58,339 nucleotides of DNA from positions 1 through 58,339 of the forward strand of contig CAXBNM010000001.1 in the NCBI GenBank assembly GCA_963976885.1, given 5' to 3'. A model generated the notes under the pieces. It made no database searches and was not told the origin of the DNA. It saw only the letters and a list, made by a program, of their open reading frames with translations. Below, piece by piece: positions 11,851 through 27,223 of the stretch. This stretch comes from an uncultured Burkholderiaceae bacterium (GTDB taxonomy: Bacteria; Pseudomonadota; Gammaproteobacteria; Burkholderiales; Burkholderiaceae_E). The first letter of the stretch is position 1; every line of letters starts with the position of its first letter. Made by a program: the position numbers and the translations under genes.

Positions 11851-14800
11851 AGTGTGGCCCTGGGGGAATCGGACGCAAGGTCCGGCGCATCAGCAGGCGA
11901 GTCGTCCGCCGCTTGCTGGCGTGCCTGTTCAAGCATGGATTCAATGGACTCATCGTCGCCGGTGCCGCCTTCGGCAACCGGCATATTGCTCAGAACCGGC
12001 AACGGATCAATTGATCGCCATGCGGGCATCGTCGCCAGCACGCTGCTGAGCAGGGCGCCGCTGCGAATCAGCCAGAGTACATAGCCGATGGAAAGGGTTG
12101 AGCTGAGGGCAAACGACGAGGTAACGATCTGGCGATCAAATGACGTTTGCGCTTGGATCTCATCTTTGATGGATTGAAGCTGGCGACTGAAGTATTCGCT
12201 GGAAAAATCTACCTGCTCGATGCCGTAGCTGCGTTCGGTCTGGAGCTGATCGACGGGCAGATCAAAGCGTCGTTCACTCTCCTGATTATCGGACAGACCT
12301 TGTACGGCAGGCGGTATCTCGCGCCGGCCGGCCAGCAGCGCCGATTGGGCGTTGCGCTCGATCGGGCTCTGGCCGTCCGATGCCGAGTCTTCGACGAGCG
12401 CGGCCTGCGCCCGGCCACTGGCATTGTCGCTATCGCCGCCTGGTGTGTCGGCTCGTCCGTCGTTGTTGATCTCGTCGTCGGCATCGTCATCGCCGTCGGC
12501 ATCGTCGTTGTCCGTTGCTGAGTCATCGGCTACCTCATTGTCCGGTGCTTCGGCGGGTTCATCGGGAACAATGCTCGGTTGCAGGCTTTCGATGCCTACT
12601 TTGATAACGCCGCTGCGGCCGCCCTCGCTGTCTTCGATCTGGATTTCGAAGCTGTCATTGCTGCCAGTGGCTTTATCAGCCAGGTAGCTGACCTTGCCCT
12701 CGCTCAGTTGCTGCTGCGTGAACCGGTCACCCGTGTTGAGCTTGACGCCATCAAGAAGCAGGCTTCCCTGGCTTGGTGTGTTCAACACAACGAAGTGCAA
12801 CTCACTGGCATCGTCCTCGATGTCGGTTGCCGACAGCACGGCAGTGCTGAGAACCCGTTCGGTGCCGGGCTCGGCTGACGTCCACATGGATCCTGCCGGG
12901 CTTGGGCTGTCATTGACCGCAATGATTTCGATTGTGGTGCTGATCGTTACCGAGCGGGTCGGATCGTTCGGATCGATGAAGCTGGCTTGCGCGGCCCAGT
13001 TGCCGTTAACGTCCTGGTCGGGGCGGTAGTCGAGAGTCAGCAGGGCAGCGGCAATGTCGCTGACCGACCCACTCAAGCGCATGCTTTGATCGGCGACGCC
13101 GTCACCTTGAGTGAAGGTCAAGCCAGTGGTCTGTCTCAACGATAACGACCCGGACGACACCGCCAGGTTCAGCTCCAGCACGCTGGCGTTCAACGGGTCC
13201 GCGAAGTTCAGGCTTTGACCCCATGGGCTGGTCTGATCTTCCATGATCTGCCGGTTGCCCGACCATTGCGCGGTCAGGCCGTCGGGGTTGACTGCTACCC
13301 CGACGCGCAAAGACTGGGTGTCGGCTCGGACTCCGTCCGACGCGCTGACCAGGACGTGATAGATATTGTCGCCATCAGCATCCATTGGATTGTCCGCCGT
13401 TGGCAGGAAGCGAAAACTCAGAGCGCCGGAGGTGTTGTTGATGTTGAACGCCGCGGCATCTGTGCCTCCGGCGATCGTGTAGAACAGCGTCGGAGAGTCC
13501 GGGTCGTTTGCCCGTACCGTGGTCACAGCTGTGGTGCGGTCGGGCAGCGTGATACTGGCTGAGTCACCGCCGTTGTTGCTCGTGATCGTCGGCGAATAGT
13601 CGACTGTATTGATGACATTGAAAGTCAGGAGCGCGCCTGAGGTACTGAACAGGCCGGCGCTGTCGGCTACCTGGAAGCGAAAGCTTGCATAAGGTGAACC
13701 CACGCCATGCTCAACCGGGGTGAATACCAGCTCGCCGGCTGTCAGGCTGGCCTGGGAGATCTCCTGGCCGACAGCGACGCCTGTGCCGTTCAGGGACAGT
13801 GTGCCAAGGGTTGGCAGGGTATCAATACGTACGGCGCTGAGTGTGTCGTATGCATCCTGGTCGGCAAAGGCGAAATCTGCAACAGTCAACGCGGCAGAAG
13901 TTGATTCGTCGATGGTGCGCGTGTTGCCGTTGGAGGAGGGGGCCTCATTGACGTCGCTGACAGCAATGGTGAAACTGCGCTGGATTGTCGATCCATCGGA
14001 GGAACGCGCCAGTACATTGATTTGATGGGGCAGATCCGTCTCGAAGTCAAAGACAGCCGCATCGCTCACCGTGACCACACCGGTGTTTGCATCAATCGCG
14101 AACAGCGCGTCAGGGTTCGAATTGAGCTCGTAAGTAATGATGCGGCCGTTGTCTGTGTCAGTGGTCTGCACGGTAATGCCGACCGGGGTTCCTGCAACAG
14201 CATTCTCCGCGACGGCATCGGGCGTGGCGTCGCTGTCGATGATGGGATTCAGCCCTTCATTGACATTCGTCACCGCGACGTTGAAGGTTCGAGTGATGGT
14301 TGACCCGTCATTGGAAGTGGCACGCACGGTGATCTGATGCGATTCACTTGTTTCAAAATCGATGTTCGCGCCATTGCTGACAGTTACCACGCCGGTGTTG
14401 GCATCAATGCCAAACAGCGGACTGCTGTCGGGGTCGAGCGAGTAGGTGATGGTTCTACCCTGGTCGGTGTCGGTCGCACGAGCCGTAATGCCCGTGGCGG
14501 TGCCTGCGACTGAGTTCTCGGCGATGGAGTTGGCTGCGCCGTCGAGGTCCGCGATCGCCGAGAGGCCTTCATTGACATCGATGACATCGATCGAAAAGAT
14601 TCGAGTCGCCGTGGAGCCGTCGTCCGAACTTGCCCGAACGGTAATGAAGCGTTGTGCTGATGACTCGTAGTTGATGGTGGCGCCGCTATCAACGCTGACG
14701 ACGCCGGTATTGGCGTCAATGACGAACGCACTGTCGGAGCCCGGCTCGAGCGAGTATGTGATGGTGCGACCGCTATCAGTATCGGTCGCGTGAGCAGTAA

Positions 14801-17800: not shown

Positions 17801-19622
17801 ACACTGTGCTGGTGGTGCCGTGAAGCACGATTTGCGGATTACTCTGTAAACGATGGGAGCTGACATTGATGCGTTGCGGATCGCTTATCGCGACGCCGGC
17901 AGCGTTGAAGTGGCGAACATAGACGTCGCTGTCGGACGTGAATGCTGGTATGGAATCCCAGGCAACGACGATGTTGCCACTGGCATCAAGCGCAATGCTC
18001 GGACTCGACTGATACTTGTCAAAGGATTGAAAATATTCGGTGTCTGATCCGATTTGATCCAGATTGGCGTCAAGTCTCTTGAAATACATGGCGTTGTCCA
18101 GAAAACCTTCCTGCCATGCCACGACGATCGCACCATTGTCGTTCATTGCTATTGCTGGACGTGCCAGAAAACCATGGCTGTGCACGTTGAGCTTGACTGT
18201 GTCTACCAGCCCGTTGCTGCCAATCTTCGCCAGTTCAAGATCGGGTGTTCCGGTGCCGGGGTCTTTGACGAACGCAATGACCGCCGTCTGGGTAGTGTTG
18301 TTGATGGCCACCACCGGAGTTTCATACTGTCGATTGTCGTTGGTCGACGCCAGCTGATCAGAGTTCAGCTCCTGATTGCCCTGGTCGTCAAAGGTCGCAT
18401 ACAGTATCTGGTCGTCGTCGCCGCCTTCTTCCTGCACCCACGTAATGATGAATCGTCCGTTATCGAACAGTGCGACTGCCGGTGTGCGCTGATCGTCCTT
18501 TGTTTCACGGCTGATGCGGAATTCGTACGGGTTCTCGTATACGGCGCCGCTCTTGCCAGCGCTCAGCGCGAGGCTTGGGCGGGCCATTGGTGTGCCATCT
18601 GCTGCGAAGCGCTGGGCATACAGGCCGTTGTTGTCGCCGTCCTGGTCTTCGGCCTCCCACACGACGATGAACTGTCCGCTGGCGTTCATGGCGACCACCG
18701 GGTTGGAGCGTTCCGTGCTGCCGCTTCGCGCTATTTCAGTGGCATTGCCGGTCGGCTGCCCATTGGTGTCGTACAGCCGGAAGTACACCTGATTGTTCTG
18801 ATCACTCTCCCAGACGACGACTACCGATTGGCCATTGGTGGCGATCTGATTGGCGCCGGTGGCTTCGCTGACATGTTGATTTCCTGCGGTACTCTGATTG
18901 ACTTGCTCGGTACGGGGGTTGTCGCCGAAGTTCAGGGTGCCGAGCCAGTTGTCGGTGGTCGCAGTGCTCAGGCCCGTAAAAGACTCGATGAGGCCGGTGC
19001 TGTCTTCCAGTTCCCAGTCGCCGCCCAGCGACTCATGGCCGGTGGTGTCGTTACTTGCCGCAACGTCGGCGCCGGTCAACTCGCTCAGCTCGTCGATCAG
19101 TGCCAGACCGGAGCCATCGGCGGTGAGGTCGCAGCCAAAGATCAGCAGATCGGCGTCGGTGCTCAGCAGCGGACGCCAGGAGGCAAATTGTTCGGCGAGT
19201 GCAGGCAGGGTGGTGTTTGACACCGATTGATTGCCCAACTCGAAACTGCCCGCCGCGCCATGGGTATAGATCTGTACGGATTGATATTGCTGATCGCTGC
19301 CAGTCAGGGCCTCGGTGACCGCCTGCAGGCCGTCGCTGTCTGCATCAAGCACCAGGTACTCGATCTGTACGCCGGCTTCAGCCTGGGCGGTGATGTCGGC
19401 AACGAGTGAATCCAGGTCAGGCAGGCGCTCATCGAAAACGGCCAGGGTCCAGGCATTGGCTTGCTGCTGACTTGCCGTGTTGGCGCTCTCTTGCGGTTCG
19501 GTGTGGGCGACGATGCTGGCATCTGCCGGCATCACATCAACCGGGCCGAGCAGCGCGGCGGCGTCGGCCGAATACAGGATGCGCTGGGCAACCTGTTCCG
19601 CAATGGGTGGGCGACCGCTCAA
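11847..19622 (-). CDS. Giant surface/adhesin-like protein: DUF4347, propeller-like repeats, Calx-beta-like domain, 11 cadherin-like repeats, acidic tract, C-terminal TM region
   Basis: Uninterrupted ORF 11847..19703 (2618 codons from a GTG). The preferred start is TTG at 19622: GGAG lies 8 nt upstream and the start sits 4 nt after the upstream stop. Alternative starts are GTG 19703 (77-nt overlap) and ATG 19532. The DUF4347-like segment reads LAVFDERLPDLDSLV...IYTHGAAGSFELG...LLIFGCDL...GGDWELE. The roughly 102-aa repeats follow the pattern VNEPLSAI.D.D...EN..AGT.VGITA.A.D.D.G.T.TYSL...F.ID..TGVVTV. Confidence 0.93.
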   Translation of the reverse strand: MSGRPPIAEQVAQRILYSADAAALLGPVDVMPADASIVAHTEPQESANTASQQQANAWTLAVFDERLPDLDSLVADITAQAEAGVQIEYLVLDADSDGLQAVTEALTGSDQQYQSVQIYTHGAAGSFELGNQSVSNTTLPALAEQFASWRPLLSTDADLLIFGCDLTADGSGLALIDELSELTGADVAASNDTTGHESLGGDWELEDSTGLIESFTGLSTATTDNWLGTLNFGDNPRTEQVNQSTAGNQHVSEATGANQIATNGQSVVVVWESDQNNQVYFRLYDTNGQPTGNATEIARSGSTERSNPVVAMNASGQFIVVWEAEDQDGDNNGLYAQRFAADGTPMARPSLALSAGKSGAVYENPYEFRISRETKDDQRTPAVALFDNGRFIITWVQEEGGDDDQILYATFDDQGNQELNSDQLASTNDNRQYETPVVAINNTTQTAVIAFVKDPGTGTPDLELAKIGSNGLVDTVKLNVHSHGFLARPAIAMNDNGAIVVAWQEGFLDNAMYFKRLDANLDQIGSDTEYFQSFDKYQSSPSIALDASGNIVVAWDSIPAFTSDSDVYVRHFNAAGVAISDPQRINVSSHRLQSNPQIVLHGTTSTVFYSGKSDADTQGVLLANSAFEPVSLNFDFPGGQFTVEGGNSVDFRVALSSQPTADVTITATISDPTEGTLSQATLNVTSGNWSAWQTFSVTPVEDGIIDGDIIYNITFSTAGSTDVNYQAMPDVVIPWTNRDNDSTVGAVTDSNASDAKLPENATAGTQTSITAQATDPDPDDTVTYQLISNPGNRFVIDASSGVVSVSNTASFDFENDDSHQVKIRASSTDGSFSEAFFVVSISNVPEPLSPVTDANTADANAIAENASAGTAVGLTAYAIDGDEETVSYSLTDDAGGRFAVDANTGVVTYTGNTPLQFEGVGSYQITVAATSPDDSTQQDFTIAVTDANDPVSAITDTDITEPNSVTENAGAGTLTGITAYAEDEDAGETVEYSLLDDAGGRFVIDVATGVVTVSGNTPIDYEAAQQHDIEVRAQSSGSPSDYSDRVFTINVLDANDPVSAISDADNATVNRIAENAAAGTTVGVTAAALDQDGDSVTYSLIDNAGDRFIIDANTGIITVSGNTPINFEDADTHDVTVEARSSDGSSTTKIFTISVTDIDESVGPISDADASPNTVAENSPAGTLALITAMAQDPEGETITYTLDDNAGNRFAIDGSTGVVSVVAAASLDFEAAQQHQIQVRATSTDGSFTTATFTISIANVNESVSAIADIDGTSNLIPETATGGTSVGISALAIDPDDGDTISYSLTSNPGNRFEIVDPADGTVTVNQAGSFTWTPGDDYMIVVRATSSDGTFTERTFTISVTNVNDDISAIIDANAGVDAISEDAAANTPVGITASATDPDAGDTVTYSISSNPGNLFKIADDTVGVVTVNDGASFNYENATEHTIRIRADSSDGSYSERDFTVQINNVNEPLSAIIDDDGATNSVNENASQGTLVGITAHTSDADLGQSITYTMESDPSGLFAIDGTTGVVSVATGAEINYEAPNGTQHQIQIRATSSDGSTVTRTFDIDVTNVNEPLSAIVDTDSDDANNQVLENSAAGTTVGITAHATDTDSGRTITYSLEPGSDSAFVIDANTGVVSVDSGATINYESSAQRFITVRASSDDGSTATRIFSIDVIDVNEGLSAIADLDGAANSIAENSVAGTATGITARATDTDQGRTITYSLDPDSSPLFGIDANTGVVTVSNGANIDFETSESHQITVRATSNDGSTITRTFNVAVTNVNEGLNPIIDSDATPDAVAENAVAGTPVGITVQTTDTDNGRIITYELNSNPDALFAIDANTGVVTVSDAAVFDFETDLPHQINVLARSSDGSTIQRSFTIAVSDVNEAPSSNGNTRTIDESTSAALTVADFAFADQDAYDTLSAVRIDTLPTLGTLSLNGTGVAVGQEISQASLTAGELVFTPVEHGVGSPYASFRFQVADSAGLFSTSGALLTFNVINTVDYSPTITSNNGGDSASITLPDRTTAVTTVRANDPDSPTLFYTIAGGTDAAAFNINNTSGALSFRFLPTADNPMDADGDNIYHVLVSASDGVRADTQSLRVGVAVNPDGLTAQWSGNRQIMEDQTSPWGQSLNFADPLNASVLELNLAVSSGSLSLRQTTGLTFTQGDGVADQSMRLSGSVSDIAAALLTLDYRPDQDVNGNWAAQASFIDPNDPTRSVTISTTIEIIAVNDSPSPAGSMWTSAEPGTERVLSTAVLSATDIEDDASELHFVVLNTPSQGSLLLDGVKLNTGDRFTQQQLSEGKVSYLADKATGSNDSFEIQIEDSEGGRSGVIKVGIESLQPSIVPDEPAEAPDNEVADDSATDNDDADGDDDADDEINNDGRADTPGGDSDNASGRAQAALVEDSASDGQSPIERNAQSALLAGRREIPPAVQGLSDNQESERRFDLPVDQLQTERSYGIEQVDFSSEYFSRQLQSIKDEIQAQTSFDRQIVTSSFALSSTLSIGYVLWLIRSGALLSSVLATMPAWRSIDPLPVLSNMPVAEGGTGDDESIESMLEQARQQAADDSPADAPDLASDSPRATL
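13945..17395 (-). repeat. Array of 11 in-frame tandem cadherin-like repeat units (about 306 bp each) inside the giant gene
   Basis: Eleven successive protein units are counted from GAVTDSNASDAKLPENATAGT (about 17395) to AVSDVNEAP (about 13945). The units are clearly diverged at the DNA level. Confidence 0.85.
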
Positions 19623-20596: not shown

Positions 20597-22543
20597 TTAT
20601 TGACGGCTCAGTGTAGAAAAGTGCAATTCACGCGAGTTATTGAGATCTGCCCGGAGGCGTTTGACTCTTTGTGAGCGGTCATGCCACTGCCAGAGTTGTT
20701 GTCTGAGATGCACAATGACAGCCGCCAGCGGTCGGTAACGAATGACCGGATGGAGCATCCGTAGCAGTCGACTGCTTGTGTCAGCGCGGTAATTTGCTTG
20801 TTCGTGTTGATTCAGAACACACCAGTGCTCTGCGCTGCCTGGTTCACCCTGGCGGGCCGCACGGCCCGTCATTTGCCGGTCGATTCGAGCACTGCGATTC
20901 GATTGCAGGTTCAGCACGTGCAGCCCACCGGCCTGGAGGGCCACCGAATCGGGTTTGATGTCGGTACCGCGACCGGCGATCTGGGTTGAAATGGTGATAC
21001 GGCCCGCTTTGCCGGCCTGACTTATCTGTTCGGCTTCGGTGTCGGCATTGGCGGCGTCGAGCAGATTCGCCTCAATGCCGGCGGAATTGAAGGCCAGTGC
21101 CAATGCACGGGCTTGAGCAACGTTATCGGTGCCAATCAGTACCGGCCGGCCGTGGGCGGCAAGCGTTCGGGCGCGTTGGAGAACGGCGACGCAGAGTTGT
21201 TGCTGGTTTGAAAACAGGCGATGACCGAAGTGACGCCGTTGCGAGGGCTGGTGTGGTGCTACTCGACTGACGCGCAGGCCATAGGATTTTCGGATTTCGC
21301 CGCGAACCTCATGCAAGGTCCCCGAAAGACCACACAAGTGGTGGTAGCGGGCAAAAAAGCGTGGATAACTCAGACCGCTGCGAGCGCTGGATTCGCCGGG
21401 AGGCGGCAGGGATTCCTTGGCGCAGATCAGGGCTTGCAACAGGCCGGGCAAAACCCGGCCTTCGGCAACGCGGCCGGTAGCGGCGTCGATCAAGGCGATC
21501 GATTCATCACGCACCAGGTAATCAACATCGCGGCGCAAGACGTACAAGGCGACCAGCGCATGGCTGATGACCTCGGTACGGTAGTCGGCATGAAACCAGA
21601 GCTGATCGAAACCCGGGTGCAGGGCGGCCAGGCGTTTCATTGCCTGCGGCCTGATGGTGGCACTGCGCCGTTCGGGGTGACAGTCAAAGTCCTGGCGCGG
21701 CGTCAGTTGCCCGGCCAGGGCCAGCGCCAGGGCAGGGTCGACATCAACCAGGGCCTTGGCGACCGGTTCGGCAAGGACCAGCGGAATCGACGCTTCGTCG
21801 ATCAGCAGACAATCGGCTTCATCGACAATGGCAACGCACAAACCGCGCAGCAAATGCGACGGCGTGCCAGGCGGATCGGCGGCTTCCTTGCTGTCCTGAT
21901 CGCGCAGGTAATCAAAGGCGCAGGTTTTGGCGGTCGCATAACACACGGCCTGCTGCCAGGCCTGGCGTCGTTGCGGCGGCGTCATGGTGGCGGTGGCGGC
22001 GGCGCAGTTCAGCCCCAGTGCTGCAAAAAAGTCCTGATGGTCGGCGGCATCACGGCTGGCCAGATAGTCATTGGCGGTGAGTACATGGACCGGTGCTCCG
22101 GTCATGGCCAGCACCGCCGCGGCCAGCGCCGCGGCCAGGGTCTTGCCCTCACCGGTAGCCAACTCGACCAATTGCTGGTTCAGGAGCAGGGCTGCGGTGG
22201 TGAACTGATTCGGATGAGGGCTGAGTCCGCGGGTGCGCGCATAGTGCTGGGCAACACAGGCCAGCGCAAGCGCACAGCTTGCTTCGTTCAAACCGAGACG
22301 GGCCAGCGCCCAGCGCACACGGCTGCTATTGATCGGGGCGCCGCCGGCCAGTTGCAAAGCCCGCCGGGCGACCCGGTGCGGGTTGCGCAGCGGTTGGCGG
22401 CGAGCGCGTACCGGATAGTCGGTTTCGCGGGCTTGCGGGTAGACACCCCACACGGGGCCGGGCACGGCCGGGCGGCAGGGGCGTTGGCGACGCGATGACG
22501 CTTGGGCCGGCGGGCGGAGCCGGGGGGCGGTCAGTGTGCTCAT
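20597..22543 (-). CDS. SecA-like DEAD-motor ATPase lacking the SecA C-terminal scaffold/wing/CTL domains
   Basis: LVELATGEGKTLAAALAAAVLAMTGAPVHVLTANDYLASRDA matches the SecA NBD1 Walker A region. VAIVDEADCLLIDEASIPLV is the Walker B / DEAD motif. DYLVRDESIALIDAATGRV is PPXD-like. LSGTLHE...PVLIGTDNV...GRGTDIKP...GGLHVLN...RIDRQMTGRAARQGEPG is NBD2. The protein ends about 50 aa after NBD2. ATGA overlap with the upstream gene (22540-22543). Confidence 0.88.
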   Translation of the reverse strand: MSTLTAPRLRPPAQASSRRQRPCRPAVPGPVWGVYPQARETDYPVRARRQPLRNPHRVARRALQLAGGAPINSSRVRWALARLGLNEASCALALACVAQHYARTRGLSPHPNQFTTAALLLNQQLVELATGEGKTLAAALAAAVLAMTGAPVHVLTANDYLASRDAADHQDFFAALGLNCAAATATMTPPQRRQAWQQAVCYATAKTCAFDYLRDQDSKEAADPPGTPSHLLRGLCVAIVDEADCLLIDEASIPLVLAEPVAKALVDVDPALALALAGQLTPRQDFDCHPERRSATIRPQAMKRLAALHPGFDQLWFHADYRTEVISHALVALYVLRRDVDYLVRDESIALIDAATGRVAEGRVLPGLLQALICAKESLPPPGESSARSGLSYPRFFARYHHLCGLSGTLHEVRGEIRKSYGLRVSRVAPHQPSQRRHFGHRLFSNQQQLCVAVLQRARTLAAHGRPVLIGTDNVAQARALALAFNSAGIEANLLDAANADTEAEQISQAGKAGRITISTQIAGRGTDIKPDSVALQAGGLHVLNLQSNRSARIDRQMTGRAARQGEPGSAEHWCVLNQHEQANYRADTSSRLLRMLHPVIRYRPLAAVIVHLRQQLWQWHDRSQRVKRLRADLNNSRELHFSTLSRQ

Positions 22544-24735
22544 GACCAGCCCGGCGCCAGGCGCGTGTTGAATGTATGGCCGAGACTGCGCGCCGCTTGC
22601 AGCAGCGCACTGGTATAGCCGAAATCCAGCCGGACCCAGACTCGCTGACCCGGTACCAGTGAATTACCTGCTTGCGCGGGCAGCTTGAGATCGAGCTGAA
22701 AGGTGGGCGCCGCCGGGCGCAAGGCTGCGTCGGTGGTGCGGTCCAGTTCCACCGAGCCGCCAGCGCTGGCGGCAAACGCCTCGGCGGGCAGGGTGCTCAG
22801 TGCGGCGGGGGTAAAGCCACTGACCTCGGCCCGAACCGGCTTGGTGTTGTCGCGCGTGGCAAGCCGCGCCCAGATCGCGGGCTGGCCAGTCTGCCACTGC
22901 GGTAACAAGCGTGCCGCCTGGCTTGCATCGAGCATCGCCCGCAACTGCACCTGGCCTGGCGGCGGCGCTATGCCCAGAAGTTCACCGGCGGCCACGAAGC
23001 GGCCCGGCAAGTCGCTCGCGGGCGCAATGAGTCGGAACCGATCTGCGGTAGCCGGCTCGCGCACGCGGACCGTGAGTTGCTCGCGGCGCTCGCGCAGTTG
23101 GGTCAGGGTACGTTCGGCCTGGCGCAGCGATTCCGGATTGCTCCGCTGCGCGGCCGGCTCGGCCATGTTGCTGATCCATTGGCTGCGCGCTGCGTTAACG
23201 ACACCGCTCTGAACGCCGATGCGCGCATCAAGGAGCGGGTCGTGCATTTGCACGAGTGCTTGATTGTCGGTCTGAGCAGAGGCCGCGTCGCCGTGTACCG
23301 CGACAATATAGCCGGGTTGGCGGGCGCGTATGCGGGCGTCATCGGGCAGCCAGACGACCGCTTGTGCCAGGGAACGATCGGGCAGTGGCAGCAGCGCTGC
23401 GCCGAGCAGGGCACCGGCCAGCAATCCGGCGCGCAGGCCGAGTGTGGCGTTGCGGCCCGGCGAGCCGGTCAGTTGCAGTGCGCCGCGCAGCAGGCGCACC
23501 ACAGGCATGACGAACAGCATCAATATCGCCATCGCCATCAGTGCCAGCCCGGCAGCCCGAAAGTGGCTGCCGATCCAAAGCGCGAAGGTCGTGAGAATCG
23601 CCACGCGATAACACCAGGCAAGTGGCGCGTAGGCCAGCTGCCAGTATCGTTCAGTGGCATCGCAGGCCGGCATTGGCTGCGACACGCCGGTCAGCAGACG
23701 TAACCATCCCTGATGCCAGCGTTGATTGCTGCGTTCGCTCAGATTGGCCAGGCCGGTCAGATCGGTGAGGACATAGTAGCCATCGAAGCGAATGAGCGGA
23801 TTGCCGTTGAGAAAAACCGTCATTACGCTGCCGATCAGTGCTACCGCCAGCATCAGTTCGCGCCAGAGGCCGTCGGCCAGCAAGGTCCAGGCAATCAACG
23901 CCAGACTGGCCAGCAGCAGTTCGACGACGATGCCGGCGGCACTGACCGCGGCACGTTGTCGACCCGAAGTCAGCAGGTTGGCGTCACTGGCATCGACATA
24001 GGGGGCGGGCATCAGCATCAGCAGCGCGACGCCAAGTTCGCGGGTAGTGCCACCGAAATGGCGCAAAGTGATGCCGTGCGCCAATTCATGAATGATCTTG
24101 ACGAAGGGGTAGGCACACCAGAGCAGCAACCAGAATGACGGCCGGGCTGTCGCTTCGGAGATGGCCGGCGCCAGGGTGTCGAATTGCTGCAGCGCGCAGA
24201 GCAATGCCAGAGCGACGATCAGCGCTGCGCTGGCCAGTGCCCACGGACCCATCAGGTGACCGCCAAGGGCGTGCAAGCGTTCGATCAGTGCCGAGGGGTC
24301 GGCCAGGCGCCAGCGCGGTGCCAGCAGGTTGTGTTGCTGGCGCCGCGCCGCGGCGGTGTCTTCATCCCATTGTTGCTGGCGTTGGTCGAGATCGGGCCAG
24401 CTTTCGCAGTGCAGATAGCCTTGTCTTACCAGGCGGGCCAGAATCGGCATCAGTGCTTGCTGAGCCGGTAATTCGTCGGGCTGATGGCTGGCAACCCATT
24501 GCCAGATTTCATTGAGCGTGCGTTGCCCATCGCAACGCGCCACGATCGCCCAGGCCGCCTGATTCAAACGCAGCTGACCGCGTTGCTCGGGCCGGCTGAG
24601 CATGATCCAATGGGCGCCGCGCATGCGCTGCGCGGTAATCCGCACCTGGCGGACCAGGGCAGGTTTCAGGCTGCTCAGCCGGTACCATTGCGGGCTGTAC
24701 AGGCTGGTGGGGGCATCGGAGCGGGTCATCACCAT
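22540..24735 (-). CDS. Fusion protein: PqqD/RRE-like N-domain, polytopic M50-type zinc metalloprotease core, HlyD-like C-terminal region
   Basis: N-terminal segment LRLNQAAWAIVARCDGQRTLNEIWQWV...ILARLVRQGYL follows the PqqD pattern. Multiple TM helices carry HELAHG (HExxH) and NGNPLIRFDGYY (the M50 NxxPxxxLDG-type motif). The C-terminal third resembles an MFP barrel. Candidate starts are ATG 24735, ATG 24729 and GTG 24753; all overlap the upstream stop at 24729-24731. Confidence 0.85.
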   Translation of the reverse strand: MVMTRSDAPTSLYSPQWYRLSSLKPALVRQVRITAQRMRGAHWIMLSRPEQRGQLRLNQAAWAIVARCDGQRTLNEIWQWVASHQPDELPAQQALMPILARLVRQGYLHCESWPDLDQRQQQWDEDTAAARRQQHNLLAPRWRLADPSALIERLHALGGHLMGPWALASAALIVALALLCALQQFDTLAPAISEATARPSFWLLLWCAYPFVKIIHELAHGITLRHFGGTTRELGVALLMLMPAPYVDASDANLLTSGRQRAAVSAAGIVVELLLASLALIAWTLLADGLWRELMLAVALIGSVMTVFLNGNPLIRFDGYYVLTDLTGLANLSERSNQRWHQGWLRLLTGVSQPMPACDATERYWQLAYAPLAWCYRVAILTTFALWIGSHFRAAGLALMAMAILMLFVMPVVRLLRGALQLTGSPGRNATLGLRAGLLAGALLGAALLPLPDRSLAQAVVWLPDDARIRARQPGYIVAVHGDAASAQTDNQALVQMHDPLLDARIGVQSGVVNAARSQWISNMAEPAAQRSNPESLRQAERTLTQLRERREQLTVRVREPATADRFRLIAPASDLPGRFVAAGELLGIAPPPGQVQLRAMLDASQAARLLPQWQTGQPAIWARLATRDNTKPVRAEVSGFTPAALSTLPAEAFAASAGGSVELDRTTDAALRPAAPTFQLDLKLPAQAGNSLVPGQRVWVRLDFGYTSALLQAARSLGHTFNTRLAPGWS

Positions 24736-26105
24736 GGTTGCCAGCGCCACCACTGACGCGCCAGCGCATCGAGCAGATCACCGGCCCAGCGGGTAAGCAG
24801 ATTCTGGCGTGGACCGGGCAGGTGAACCGTACCGCGCTGGCCGGACTTGAGCGCATGCGTCGAACCGATCAGACGCGCATGAACCGGGACGACGTTGCGG
24901 CCATCAATGACACTGGCCACAGGCGCTACCCGGTTGACCTCGATATCGATCCGGTCCCAGGGCAGGGCGCTGGGCGCAAGTTGGCCACGCTGCCCGATGT
25001 GTACCTGCGCAATGTCGTTCTCATCGACTTCGATAAGTACCCGCAAGGAATCGTCCGGGGCCAGCGTGAACAATGCCTCGCCGCGCGTGACCGGCATGTT
25101 CAGGCGTTCGATCAGATCACCGTGCAGGACGGGGGCCGCCATCGGGGCCCGAATATCGGCCTGAGCGATCTGCATGTCCAGCAAGGCAATACGGGCGTTG
25201 GCCTGGTCGATCTGAGCACGCGCAGTGGCCATGGTCGATCGGTCGTTGCTCACCATGGCGGCGTTCACCGCAACCTGATGCTGAGCCAGGTCGGCCTGCA
25301 ACTGATTGCGCTCGAGTTCAAGTTCATCGGTACGCAAAGTCGCCAGCAGCTGGCCGGCTTGCACGATATCGCCGGGTCGGACCTGAACTGATTCGAGAAA
25401 GCCGTCGACCGGTGCGGTGATTTCACGTTCGATGGCGCCTTCCAGATGCGCCTGACTGCTGATGGGTTGCTCGAACGGAATCAGCAAACCCACGGCGACG
25501 CCAATCGCACCGGCCAGCAACCAGCGACGGCGTCGGCGCGCTGCCGGTCGGGTGTTGCGAGCCTGGCGCAGCAGGCGAGCCCATAGCAGGCGATGAACAG
25601 GCTCATCGGTTTGTTCGTTCAGGCGCAGCAGTCGCGAACACGGTGCCAGCAAGTGCTCGAGAAAGCTGATCAGCAAACCCAGACGTTGCCGGCTCTGAGC
25701 GCTGGCGGGCGGTAAAGTCGCGGCGGGCATTTCCACACAGAGCGCGCCGACCGCCTGGTTATCGAGCGCCATCGGCACGCTGAGTACGCTGCCGCCACTC
25801 TGGTGGGCCAGGGCGCGTTGCGCGGCGGTGATGGCGCCACTTGGATGCTGACCGAGGCTGTGCACACTGCATTGCGCGAACATGGCTTCATCGGCGGCGG
25901 CCAGCAGGCTGTTGCGCAGCTCGGTGTTCAGTGCGGCAACTGGCGCGTTCGAGACGGCAACCAGTTCAACTTGCTGGCTTTGCGCGTGCTGCCACGCCAG
26001 ACTCACCCGACTGGCGCCAACCGCCTGTGCCACGCCGGCACACAGCGCCGCGGCGGCGGCGGTAAAACCATCGCCTTCGCTGACCTGCTGATGAATCTGC
26101 AGCAT
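24729..26105 (-). CDS. GAF-domain-containing membrane-fusion protein (HlyD family)
   Basis: Cytoplasmic GAF-like N-terminus (GASRVSLAW...VELVAVSN...LSVPMALDNQAVGALCVEM). Polybasic RRRRRW followed by TM helix LLAGAIGVAVGLLIPF. HlyD hairpin LESVQVRPGDIVQAGQLLATL, coiled coil, then IRAPMAAPV. The ATG at 26105 is preferred. The ORF extends to a TTG at 26231, but that extension is Arg/Pro/Ala-rich. Confidence 0.82.
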   Translation of the reverse strand: MLQIHQQVSEGDGFTAAAAALCAGVAQAVGASRVSLAWQHAQSQQVELVAVSNAPVAALNTELRNSLLAAADEAMFAQCSVHSLGQHPSGAITAAQRALAHQSGGSVLSVPMALDNQAVGALCVEMPAATLPPASAQSRQRLGLLISFLEHLLAPCSRLLRLNEQTDEPVHRLLWARLLRQARNTRPAARRRRRWLLAGAIGVAVGLLIPFEQPISSQAHLEGAIEREITAPVDGFLESVQVRPGDIVQAGQLLATLRTDELELERNQLQADLAQHQVAVNAAMVSNDRSTMATARAQIDQANARIALLDMQIAQADIRAPMAAPVLHGDLIERLNMPVTRGEALFTLAPDDSLRVLIEVDENDIAQVHIGQRGQLAPSALPWDRIDIEVNRVAPVASVIDGRNVVPVHARLIGSTHALKSGQRGTVHLPGPRQNLLTRWAGDLLDALARQWWRWQPW

Positions 26106-26455
26106 CCGGGCCGCGGTCAGGCCCGATGTTTCGTCCGGGTTACTGGTCGTGCCGCCGTTGCGCACAGGCGCGGCTCCGCCGGCGCGGGGCGCAGGCGATC
26201 GCAGCGGTCGGGAACGCAGAGCAACAGACAAGATTTTGGCTCAAATGACACTTGGAATGCCTAGTTTGGGCGGTGCGGCGCGGCTGCGGCGAGACTGGCC
26301 GGTGAGTGTCCGATAGGTGGTCACCGGACAGGTACCAGCGGCTCAGAATGCGATGTGAATGCAACCGGTATCCTTCGGGGATTCCGATTTTGCTCGGGCC
26401 GGCACAGGCCGCGGGCTTTCTACCCCTTTGATTGCACGTTAGCAAGGAGACAGCA

Positions 26456-27223
26456 ATGAAATTATTTGACATGACTGGCCAGACCGCCGTGGTGACGGGT
26501 TCCAGTCGCGGGATAGGCCTGGCCATTGCGCATGCGTTGGCCGCTGCCGGCGCCAATGTGGTGGTGTCCAGCCGCAAGGTCGACGCCTGCGAAGCGGCGG
26601 TCAAGGAAATCACCGCCGCCGGCGGCAAGGCCATCGCGGTGCCGGCCAATATTTCGCGTCGTGAAGACCTCGAAAATCTGGTCGCTGAGACCAAAAAGCA
26701 GTTCGGGCCAGTCAATGCGCTTATCTGCAACGCCGCCTCAAACCCTTACTTCGGCCCCAGTTCGGGCATGAGCGATGAGGTTTTCAGCAAGGTGATGCAG
26801 AACAATGTACTGAGCAATCACTGGTTGTCGCAACTGGTGTACCCCGACATGAAAGCCGCCGGCGGTGGCGCGATTGTTATCGTGTCTTCGATTGGCGGTC
26901 TCAAAGGCTCGTCCGAGATCGGCTTGTACTGCATCTCCAAGGCGGCCGATATGCAGCTGGCCCGCAACCTGGCGGTGGAGTGGGGCCCGGACAACGTTCG
27001 CGTCAACTGCATTGCTCCTGGCCTGATCAAGACCGACTTCGCCAAGGCCTTGTATGAAGACCCGAAGCGCAAGGCCGCGGCCGAAGCCCGTTATCCGTTG
27101 CGTCGTCTGGGTGAGCCCGACGATATTGCCGGCGTTGCCGTCATGCTGGCCAGCCGTGCCGGTTCGTTCCTGACCGGTCAGACGCTGGTTGTGGATGGTG
27201 GCGTGACCATTTCTGGCACCTGA
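26456..27223 (+). CDS. SDR-family oxidoreductase
   Basis: aaggaga RBS precedes the ATG at 26456. TGSSRGIG cofactor motif and YCISKAA (YxxxK) catalytic motif. Confidence 0.9.
   Translation: MKLFDMTGQTAVVTGSSRGIGLAIAHALAAAGANVVVSSRKVDACEAAVKEITAAGGKAIAVPANISRREDLENLVAETKKQFGPVNALICNAASNPYFGPSSGMSDEVFSKVMQNNVLSNHWLSQLVYPDMKAAGGGAIVIVSSIGGLKGSSEIGLYCISKAADMQLARNLAVEWGPDNVRVNCIAPGLIKTDFAKALYEDPKRKAAAEARYPLRRLGEPDDIAGVAVMLASRAGSFLTGQTLVVDGGVTISGT

Follow-up and report, generated by a model that had tools for sequence, protein, structure and literature searches.

The ATPase SecA is, as far as we are aware, thought to work with SecY-type channels only. In the mycobacterial SecA2 and Gram-positive SecA2-SecY2 systems a specialised second SecA paralog serves particular cargo, often large adhesins; this paralog keeps the scaffold and the two-helix finger and works with SecY or SecY2. 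The N68 fragment of E. coli SecA is a laboratory truncation with a deregulated ATPase that is unable to translocate through SecY. SecA DEAD and preprotein-binding domains that have neither scaffold nor wing have furthermore been found fused into giant proteins of Omnitrophota and Actinobacteria, where they are predicted to aid export (bioRxiv 10.1101/2023.11.21.568195; eLife PMC8195603). Here we analyzed a 58,339-nucleotide (nt) stretch of DNA from an uncultured Burkholderiaceae bacterium (GenBank assembly GCA_963976885.1, contig CAXBNM010000001.1, positions 1 to 58,339; the whole stretch is called the window below), which encodes a 648-amino-acid (aa) SecA homologue, hereafter short SecA. A first-pass annotation, made from the sequence by eye, had taken it for a stand-alone SecA paralog reduced to its motor domains and recruited to the adjacent M50 and membrane fusion proteins (MFP). 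We place the gene, correcting that annotation, on the minus strand, within a cassette that is conserved across Proteobacteria, and we consider it fairly probable that short SecA serves as ATPase motor in an exporter that spans the envelope and is dedicated to giant LEPR-XLL proteins.

Comparison of short SecA with curated families gave Pfam matches to SecA_DEAD (6.7e-60, aa 88-417), SecA_PP_bind (4e-13, aa 275-371) and P-loop_SecA (1.7e-30). The NCBIfam SecA and SecA2 models matched it at 1e-83 to 1e-107, with only model positions ~40-545 covered, and its scores of 279-358 bits lay far under their cutoffs of 725-930. In the secA set TIGR00963/NF009538 it scored 329.6 against 800 bits and 318.4 against 814 bits, and the cutoff of the top SecA2 model, TIGR04221, was not reached either (357.9 against 725 bits). 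Among PDB sequences, M. tuberculosis SecA2 (4uaq) was the best match (4.7e-75) and B. subtilis SecA matched at 5e-70. Furthermore, when an AlphaFold model of the protein, built from 62 homologues (pLDDT 88.9, pTM 0.90), was compared with the PDB by Foldseek, the top 36 matches were SecA or SecA2 without exception, followed by RecQ and DEAD helicases at ~1e-9. The highest TM-scores were obtained with 6itc_A (0.82, root-mean-square deviation 3.2 Å), 5eul_A (0.79) and 3dl8_A (0.79), all of which are SecY-engaged, closed-clamp SecA, and the N68 fragment, which is similar in extent to short SecA, was also among the Foldseek matches (PDB 5k9t). Like canonical SecA, with which it superposes at a TM-score of up to 0.82, short SecA has a DEAD-type motor, a PPXD inserted in NBD1 and all ATPase motifs, and the five motifs cited by the first-pass annotation all occur in its translation. 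In an alignment of 62 family members G131, G133, K134, D241, E242, D244 and G524-D528 are invariant, as are R553, D555, R556, Q557, G560, R561 and R564 in the arginine-finger region. The PPXD, which had been described as shortened, is indeed shorter than that of E. coli SecA, but by only ~16 aa (141 versus 157 aa).

We next mapped the extent of the protein. A MAFFT alignment matched its residues 54-641 to E. coli SecA 13 to ~657, and since the alignment reaches only to E. coli ~657, short SecA terminates partway along the long helix of the scaffold. It has neither a helical wing domain nor a C-terminal zinc-binding tail, and the remainder of the scaffold, with the two-helix finger/IRA1, is absent too. 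The earlier wording "motor domains only" is therefore accurate for wing, finger and tail but leaves out about 37 residues of the first scaffold helix, which are retained as helix 604-640. According to the AlphaFold secondary structure the protein ends 8 residues beyond this helix, and positions close to its stop are conserved in the 62-member alignment, R626 being invariant and D633, L640 and F642 nearly so. At the other end, E. coli SecA is alignable only from residue 54 onwards; an N-terminal stretch without SecA counterpart thus exists as had been claimed, but it comprises ~50 rather than ~100 aa and holds a conserved motif. In this motif, PGPVWGxYPxR, P28 is invariant, G29, W32, G33, P36 and R38 are kept in at least 90% of the 62 members, and AlphaFold modelled it at pLDDT ~90. 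It is specific to the family and replaces the lipid-binding N-terminus of canonical SecA. Together, Pfam, the PDB search, AlphaFold and MAFFT confirm the original description of a 648-aa SecA homologue that has the motor domains and misses the C-terminal parts. Judged by its sequence, short SecA keeps an intact motor and polypeptide clamp and is devoid of every part through which SecA is coupled to SecYEG, SecB and lipid. It is a SecA homologue that scaffold, wing and model cutoffs alike separate from both SecA and SecA2.

Short SecA is a member of a large family of short SecA proteins and not a defective SecA. The top 120 clusters at 90% identity had lengths of 533-725 aa, and when 1.84 billion cluster representatives were searched exhaustively, the 150 top-scoring clusters at 50% identity (315 bits or more) all measured 523-785 aa, mostly 630-700 aa. 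In a neighbour-joining tree of 14 short proteins and four full-length SecA/SecA2 proteins, short and long forms were split in 300/300 bootstraps. This agrees with a branch separate from SecA2 that has its own conserved neighbours, although with just four full-length outgroups in the tree the monophyly of the short family is only provisionally supported. In alignments the two-helix finger and most of the scaffold are missing in the whole family. The window protein shares the defining features of this unnamed short SecA-like family, namely a length of ~620-740 aa, an end in a scaffold helix with R...D...L.F, and a gene position directly after that of an RRE-M50-adaptor protein. NCBIfam holds no model dedicated to the family, and public annotations call its members "hypothetical", "DEAD/DEAH box helicase", "translocase", "SecA" and even "prepilin peptidase".

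Nothing except the short length would suggest a pseudogene, or a normal secA that was misassembled or disrupted by a spurious frameshift, and we give such a reading practically no credence. It is ruled out by hundreds of homologues of the same length, by the conservation of C-terminal residues right up to the stop codon, and by intact annotated copies on complete plasmids of cultured strains. It is likewise ruled out by the lack of a C-domain coding remnant in any frame of the window: tblastn with E. coli SecA 656-901 and with the C-domain of Variovorax SecA against all frames found none (best E 1.5-9.6), in agreement with the earlier statement that no frameshifted scaffold or wing continuation lies downstream. 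There is no second secA within the window.

To place short SecA in its genomic context we examined 16 loci including the window, of which 15 are intact in the region and one (L011) is cut at a contig end. They were reached via the SecA-like protein, via the M50-like protein and by tblastn of plasmids. A scan of genome contigs with peptide patterns of the window SecA-like protein gave one locus, in a Sphaerotilus metagenome-assembled genome (MAG); these patterns are poorly conserved. Carriers are Alpha- and Betaproteobacteria plus one Desulfobacteraceae MAG, the latter two groups (beta/delta below) comprising Burkholderiales, Herminiimonas and Sphaerotilus MAGs, a complete 4.24-Mb betaproteobacterial MAG and the Desulfobacteraceae MAG. 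Wherever the region is intact (15 loci), short SecA is encoded directly after an RRE-M50-adaptor protein, often with a gene overlap of 4-8 nt, and the pairing holds also in loci found independently via the M50-like protein. Thus, as far as comparative genomics can go, it supports the proposed recruitment of the motor to the M50/MFP proteins encoded next to it. The first-pass annotation had overlooked the giant LEPR-XLL cargo candidate, the three-part nature of the M50 fusion, the TolC gene found in one cassette, and the large family with its members in cultured bacteria.

In the window, genes for a GAF-adaptor, the M50 protein, short SecA, a small adaptor, a giant protein, a hybrid histidine kinase and a GGDEF-EAL regulator form a minus-strand operon in which they overlap or nearly abut (Table 1). 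The ATG of short SecA overlaps the stop of the upstream M50-like gene (ATGA), and the MFP gene that had been noted directly after it does begin there, 13 nt past the short SecA stop. The kinase gene overlaps the stop of the giant gene by 4 nt and is itself overlapped by the GGDEF-EAL gene by 4 nt; such 4-nt overlaps between cassette genes suggest translational coupling. Nine beta/delta loci (the window, L002, L003 and L005-L010) share the order GAF-adaptor, RRE-M50-adaptor, short SecA, small adaptor, giant, and in L001 the giant precedes the small adaptor. A giant protein of 1,100 to 12,700 aa adjoins the cassette in 14 of the 15 intact loci, and 13 giants carry an LEPR-XLL motif near the N-terminus. 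The alphaproteobacterial cassettes lie on plasmids of cultured bacteria, namely those of Mesorhizobium ciceri R30 (NZ_CP088148.1; giant of ~10,500 aa), Pseudosulfitobacter sp. DSM 107133 (~12,700 aa), Alisedimentitalea scapharcae (~8,100 aa; no extra gene seen) and Methylosinus sp. C49 (~8,800 aa). The Mesorhizobium, Pseudosulfitobacter and Methylosinus cassettes carry a DUF3467 gene as an extra, and that of Methylosinus also a TolC-family outer-membrane protein: on its plasmid pMSC49a (L021 8800-12998) short SecA, annotated as "prepilin peptidase", is followed by the small adaptor and then by the TolC-family gene. No ABC transporter gene was found in the window operon or in the 15 other cassettes, the window has no TolC, secY2 or asp genes, and no gene for a small precursor or a modifying enzyme is conserved among the cassettes examined. 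Short SecA differs from canonical SecA in being encoded with M50 and adaptor genes and not alone. It also differs from the fused SecA-like domains of Omnitrophota and Actinobacteria, in which the motor sits within the giant beside the giant's own transmembrane or MFS segments, as short SecA is a protein of its own, ~650 aa long, whose gene belongs to a conserved proteobacterial operon with M50 and adaptor genes. In the papers searched, and likewise in NCBIfam, a stand-alone short SecA motor with an M50/adaptor cassette is not described.

The 737-aa membrane partner encoded upstream of short SecA is a three-part protein with a putative PqqD-like RRE domain, a site-2-protease/M50-like helical core and a fused periplasmic adaptor domain. 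Its residues H222, E223, H226, N316, N318, P319 and D324 are invariant in 40 homologues, and these protease motifs sit in the helical core of the AlphaFold model (pLDDT 87). Pfam Peptidase_M50 matched the protein below threshold (17.6 bits against a gathering cutoff of 27.2), and it is only a distant M50/site-2-protease relative. Matches to PqqD were weak (Pfam 19.9 against 23.4 bits; NCBIfam PQQ_PqqD 28.5 against 46), and in the model the RRE region consists of strands within 38-63 and helices within 65-110, an arrangement of the winged-helix type. The C-terminal region was modelled as a beta-sandwich, an alpha-hairpin and a beta-barrel, and its last ~280 aa matched MexA/AcrA/MacA in Foldseek (E 2e-10, TMt up to 0.63). 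The nearest curated relatives of the 737-aa protein are daptide_HExxH (1.1e-44; 153 bits against a cutoff of 300) and YydH/LiaK (4e-10; 40 against 225), both under cutoff.

As this adaptor domain comes in addition to two adaptor genes, the window cassette holds three adaptor modules; each cassette has one or two adaptors beyond the M50-fused one. The 500-aa adaptor matched Pfam HlyD_3 (2.5e-15) and HlyD_D23 (2.7e-12) and has a cytoplasmic N-domain. This N-domain has no Pfam GAF match of its own in the window and is called GAF-like from its orthologues: these match Pfam GAF (1e-7 in Mesorhizobium), and residues 33-167 align with the GAF-bearing N-domain of the L008 orthologue (E 3e-5). The GAF-adaptor is the first cassette gene in 11 of 12 beta/delta loci, and L004 has a GAF-adaptor as well. 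The 318-aa adaptor passed the NCBIfam RND_mfp cutoff (110.8 against 94.9 bits), matched Pfam HlyD_3 and HlyD_D23, and has an N-terminal signal or anchor helix at aa 7-25 by hydropathy. It is found in 10 of the 11 beta/delta loci that reach this position and also in Mesorhizobium and Methylosinus.

The probable cargo is the giant protein encoded after the small adaptor. Its longest open reading frame (ORF) encodes 2,618 aa; translation probably starts at a TTG at 19622 preceded by GGAG, which would give ~2,591 aa. The protein consists of a LEPR-XLL-like leader, a DUF4347 domain (Pfam 1.8e-41, 142.1 bits, which passes the gathering cutoff of 24.6), at least 10 cadherin repeats (Pfam Cadherin 6.2e-93, 10 stretches), an acidic linker and a C-terminal membrane module. 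No hydrophobic Sec-type signal was found at the N-terminus of this giant or of the other cassette giants inspected. All 11 beta/delta giants carry (I/V)ExLE(P/A/S/Q)R(I/L/V)L(F/Y/H)S(A/G)D at 10-60 residues from the start, and the LEPR-XLL motif occupies the same place in three of four alpha giants (Mesorhizobium FEALEPRLLLSADF, Pseudosulfitobacter LETFEPRVLLSADL and Methylosinus FDTLEPRVLLNADV). The LEPR-XLL model NF012209 (cutoff 17), which matched only in scans of short N-terminal peptides, a scan of the whole window giant against NCBIfam giving no match, scored 33.8 and 31.2 in L005, 17.7 in L001 and 33.9 in Mesorhizobium. Since both DUF4347 and the C-terminal module of the beta giants are missing from the alpha giants, LEPR-XLL is the common denominator of the cargo, and we infer that this shared leader fits recognition by the RRE domain of the membrane partner.

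Other parts of the giants are specific to lineages. DUF4347 follows the leader in giants of the beta/delta lineage only, and its H64/G65 and G106/C107 are invariant in 11 sequences. A single-sequence search of the PDB with this domain found nothing useful; a profile matched 9QPE chain G (E 0.008), the P. aeruginosa DUF4347 protein Tce1/PA0256. Tce1, a cargo of type VI secretion, has been described as a putative cysteine protease that resembles the protease domains of TcdA/TcdB (PMC13323088). A weak Pfam Peptidase_C80 match (E 0.11) is in register with DUF4347, and the domain thus looks like a putative C80/CPD-like cysteine protease. All complete beta giants (L001, L003, L005a, L006 and L009) end in a near-identical module, ..LSIGYVxWLxRGGxLLxSxLASMPAWRSIDPLPVL, followed by an acidic tail. 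This module is absent from the alpha giants and matched no curated family, and a protein search with it returned three short fragments only. In three alpha cassettes a gene for a DUF3467 protein of ~100 aa lies between the giant and adaptor genes (L012 6431-6736, L013 7337-7678 and L021 4322-4642). This protein, for which a single-sequence PDB search found no solved relative, may be a dedicated chaperone of the alpha cassettes.

Signalling genes accompany the cassette in the window and in L001, L004, L006, L008, L009, L010 and L011. Orthologues of the hybrid kinase adjoin it in L001, L004, L006, L009 and L011; the GGDEF-EAL regulator has an orthologue in L004, and the cassettes of L008 and L010 have GGDEF-EAL genes next to them. 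The GAF-like domain, together with the kinase and GGDEF-EAL genes linked to the cassette, suggests control by a nucleotide second messenger.

These observations can be joined into one export pathway. In the cytoplasm, the RRE domain would capture the N-terminal LEPR-XLL leader of the unfolded giant, and the SecA-like motor, docked on the M50/adaptor complex, would use ATP to thread the chain through the inner membrane from N- to C-terminus, a direction that is a guess. The three adaptor modules would bridge to a TolC-type channel and allow exit in one step, as in type I secretion. The M50 active site could remove the leader in the manner of the peptidase domain of bacteriocin ABC exporters, the cleavage site again being a guess, and in the beta/delta lineage the C-terminal membrane module, which would anchor the adhesin, may be its target instead or in addition. 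In the window the cargo would be the ~2,600-aa cadherin-repeat protein with its CPD-like DUF4347, and the co-transcribed hybrid kinase and GGDEF-EAL regulator might place its display or release under cyclic di-GMP (c-di-GMP) control, by analogy with LapA/LapD/LapG. We are evenly divided on whether the cassette represents a new class of secretion system, in which a SecYEG-free, SecA-derived ATPase, a leader-binding intramembrane protease-adaptor, further adaptors and TolC thread LEPR-XLL adhesins as large as ~12,700 aa across both membranes, beginning with the N-terminus, and LEPR-XLL is the targeting signal.

Such a system would resemble type I secretion, including the PCAT exporters and the LapA-LapBCE-LapDG system, in its adaptors, in the TolC of Methylosinus and in a giant, repeat-rich cargo without signal peptide. 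PCAT exporters also have a protease built into the inner-membrane component and an N-terminal leader on the cargo, and the Lap system has c-di-GMP genes beside the adhesin operon. In contrast to type I systems, however, the ATPase of the cassette is SecA-like and not ABC, the membrane part combines an M50 fold with an RRE and an adaptor, and three distinct adaptor modules stand in place of one. Furthermore, RTX and Lap proteins carry a C-terminal signal, whereas the putative signal of the cassette cargo, LEPR-XLL, is N-terminal. If confirmed, the cassette would count as a new type of secretion system by the numbering conventions. It would mean that a SecA motor stripped of its SecY-coupling parts has been re-used, in a widespread family, within a protease/adaptor/TolC machine. 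It would also provide an export route for proteobacterial giants that, in the loci examined, have neither a signal peptide nor an adjacent ABC exporter, a function for the LEPR-XLL motif and a context for DUF4347 in the beta/delta lineage. A new handle on biofilm and adhesion biology, including its c-di-GMP control, would follow as well. The exporter idea is directly testable, since the cassette is plasmid-borne in the cultured strains Mesorhizobium ciceri R30, Methylosinus sp. C49 and Pseudosulfitobacter sp. DSM 107133.

Several points weigh against the exporter. Its basis is confined to genomic association and to predicted structures. It is weakest with regard to the inner-membrane conduit: the cassette encodes a single polytopic protein, this protein has a site-2-protease fold, and we know of no case in which such a fold conducts proteins. 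A TolC gene is present in only 1 of the 16 loci, so that an unlinked outer-membrane channel has to be assumed elsewhere; type I systems often use an unlinked TolC. The PPXD and NBD surfaces of SecA also touch SecY, and for this reason short SecA may still make some use of SecYEG. L004 keeps the apparatus genes without a small adaptor or an adjacent giant gene. With regard to the cargo, the LEPR motif of the window giant scored 13.1 bits with NF012209, below the cutoff of 17, and the Alisedimentitalea giant (L023, ~8,100 aa, annotated "calcium-binding protein") has no LEPR-XLL at its annotated start. It is the sole cassette giant examined that lacks the motif, and its start codon may be misplaced.

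Short SecA could instead be an accessory, SecA2-like ATPase that delivers the giant to the housekeeping SecYEG, after which M50 protein, adaptors and TolC process it and take it across the outer membrane. SecA2 and SecA are indeed its top sequence matches, its model superposes best on SecY-bound SecA, the cassette encodes no obvious protein-conducting channel, and it is established that mycobacterial SecA2, itself without a wing domain, works with the housekeeping SecYEG. However, the finger and most of the scaffold, which are located at the mouth of SecY, are missing throughout the short family while SecA2 keeps them, and a Sec signal peptide is missing from the giants. It would moreover be without precedent for a periplasmic intermediate of 2,600-12,700 aa to enter an adaptor/TolC duct, and the predicted cytoplasmic leader-binding domain of the M50 partner argues for capture of the cargo at the M50 complex; we therefore consider delivery to SecYEG unlikely. 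A motor that acts as an unfoldase or extractor, feeding an end of the giant such as its C-terminal module to the M50 protease for regulated release or degradation while export takes another route, would account for the invariant protease motifs and the linked c-di-GMP genes. It would also suit the conserved C-terminal module, which, with a helix-breaking RGG/RSG in its middle and an acidic, cytoplasmic-type tail, resembles a site-2-protease substrate. Yet the alpha giants lack this module and have the same apparatus, the neighbouring genes include no ABC transporter or other alternative exporter, and three adaptor modules and a TolC gene indicate a transport duct, which makes pure extraction quite improbable in our judgement.

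The nearest curated relatives of the M50 partner, daptide_HExxH (1.1e-44) and YydH/LiaK (4e-10), both matched below cutoff, are leader proteases of ribosomally synthesized and post-translationally modified peptides (RiPPs), and like the RiPP leader machinery it combines a predicted PqqD-type, RRE-like winged helix with an HExxH intramembrane protease. This raises the question of whether the cassette matures and exports a small RiPP or bacteriocin, the giant being an unrelated neighbour. The cassette protein differs from that machinery, however, in being fused to an adaptor and paired with a SecA-like motor and a giant, and in having no small precursor or modifying enzymes. As no precursor or tailoring genes are conserved among the cassettes, we set a RiPP exporter aside as very unlikely; furthermore, the sole conserved partner outside the apparatus is the giant LEPR-XLL protein, and a short peptide has no need of a processive SecA-type motor. 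Among these explanations an exporter of giant LEPR-XLL proteins driven by short SecA is the one that we favor, and the features of the window on which it draws are listed in Table 1 together with other neighbouring genes.

Table 1. Positions of short SecA, its cassette and neighbouring genes in the 58,339-nt window.
Feature	Position	Strand	Details
Short SecA-like ATPase, 648 aa	20597..22543	minus	NBD1, PPXD, NBD2, start of scaffold helix
Family-specific N-terminal motif PGPVWGVYPQAR	22427..22462	minus	aa 28-39; no counterpart in canonical SecA
Walker A, ATGEGKTL	22136..22159	minus	aa 129-136
DEAD box	21812-21826	minus
PPXD	21365..21787	minus	aa 253-393; pairs with E. coli SecA 221-377
GRGTD motif	20957-20977	minus
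RIDRQxxGRxxRQG motif	20837-20887	minus
C-terminal long helix	20624..20734	minus	aa 604-640; remnant of scaffold helix start; aligns with E. coli SecA 621 to ~657
Three-part membrane protein, 737 aa	22540..24753	minus
PqqD-like RRE domain of 737-aa protein	24424-24642	minus	aa 38-110
Site-2-protease/M50-like helical core of 737-aa protein	23392-24294	minus	aa 154-454
HExxH motif of 737-aa protein	24076-24090	minus
NxxPxxxxDG motif of 737-aa protein	23773-23808	minus
Fused periplasmic adaptor domain of 737-aa protein	22558-23388	minus	aa 456-732
Large periplasmic adaptor (MFP/PAP), 500 aa	24729..26231	minus	periplasmic HlyD-type domains
Transmembrane helix of 500-aa adaptor	25473-25523	minus	aa 237-253
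Small periplasmic adaptor (MFP/PAP), 318 aa	19627..20583	minus
Giant protein, longest ORF 2,618 aa	11847..19703	minus
LEPR-XLL-type N-terminal motif of giant IAEQVAQRILYSADAAA	19554..19604	minus
DUF4347 domain of giant	18933..19442	minus
Invariant His-Gly of DUF4347	19248-19271	minus
Invariant Gly-Cys of DUF4347	19125-19148	minus
C-terminal hydrophobic module of giant SSFALSSTLSIGYVLWLIRSGALLSSVLATMPAWRSIDPLPVL	11991..12119	minus
Acidic tail with DDESIESMLE	11928-11957	minus	past the hydrophobic module
Hybrid histidine kinase, 862 aa	9262..11850	minus	PAS, HisKA, HATPase, receiver, Hpt (Pfam)
Response regulator with GGDEF and EAL, 601 aa	7460..9265	minus	Pfam EAL 1.6e-72, GGDEF 5.4e-32
WD40-Peptidase_C14 protein, 1,036 aa	4287-7397	minus
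SDR-type gene	26432-27223	plus
Conserved ORF, 115 aa	27247-27594	minus
ORF, 1,120 aa	332-3694	plus

We also recorded genes outside the cassette. Directly downstream of the operon lies a gene for a protein with WD40 repeats and a C-terminal caspase-like Peptidase_C14 domain, which has no homologue in the other cassette loci. The 1,120-aa ORF near the start of the window has no Pfam match and overlaps three minus-strand ORFs of 235-516 aa. Upstream of the cassette are the SDR-type gene, whose product is 78% identical in aa sequence to that of L001, and the conserved 115-aa ORF; since both are common only to L001, they represent flanking synteny and lie outside the cassette. Further secA genes were met in two other plasmid loci: in Variovorax sp. 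SRS16 plasmid 2, a secondary replicon, a full-length 854-aa secA lies amid hypothetical genes (L016 2285-4849), and plasmid p1 of L. crispatus carries a secG-secE-secA-secY cluster (L017 809-5493).

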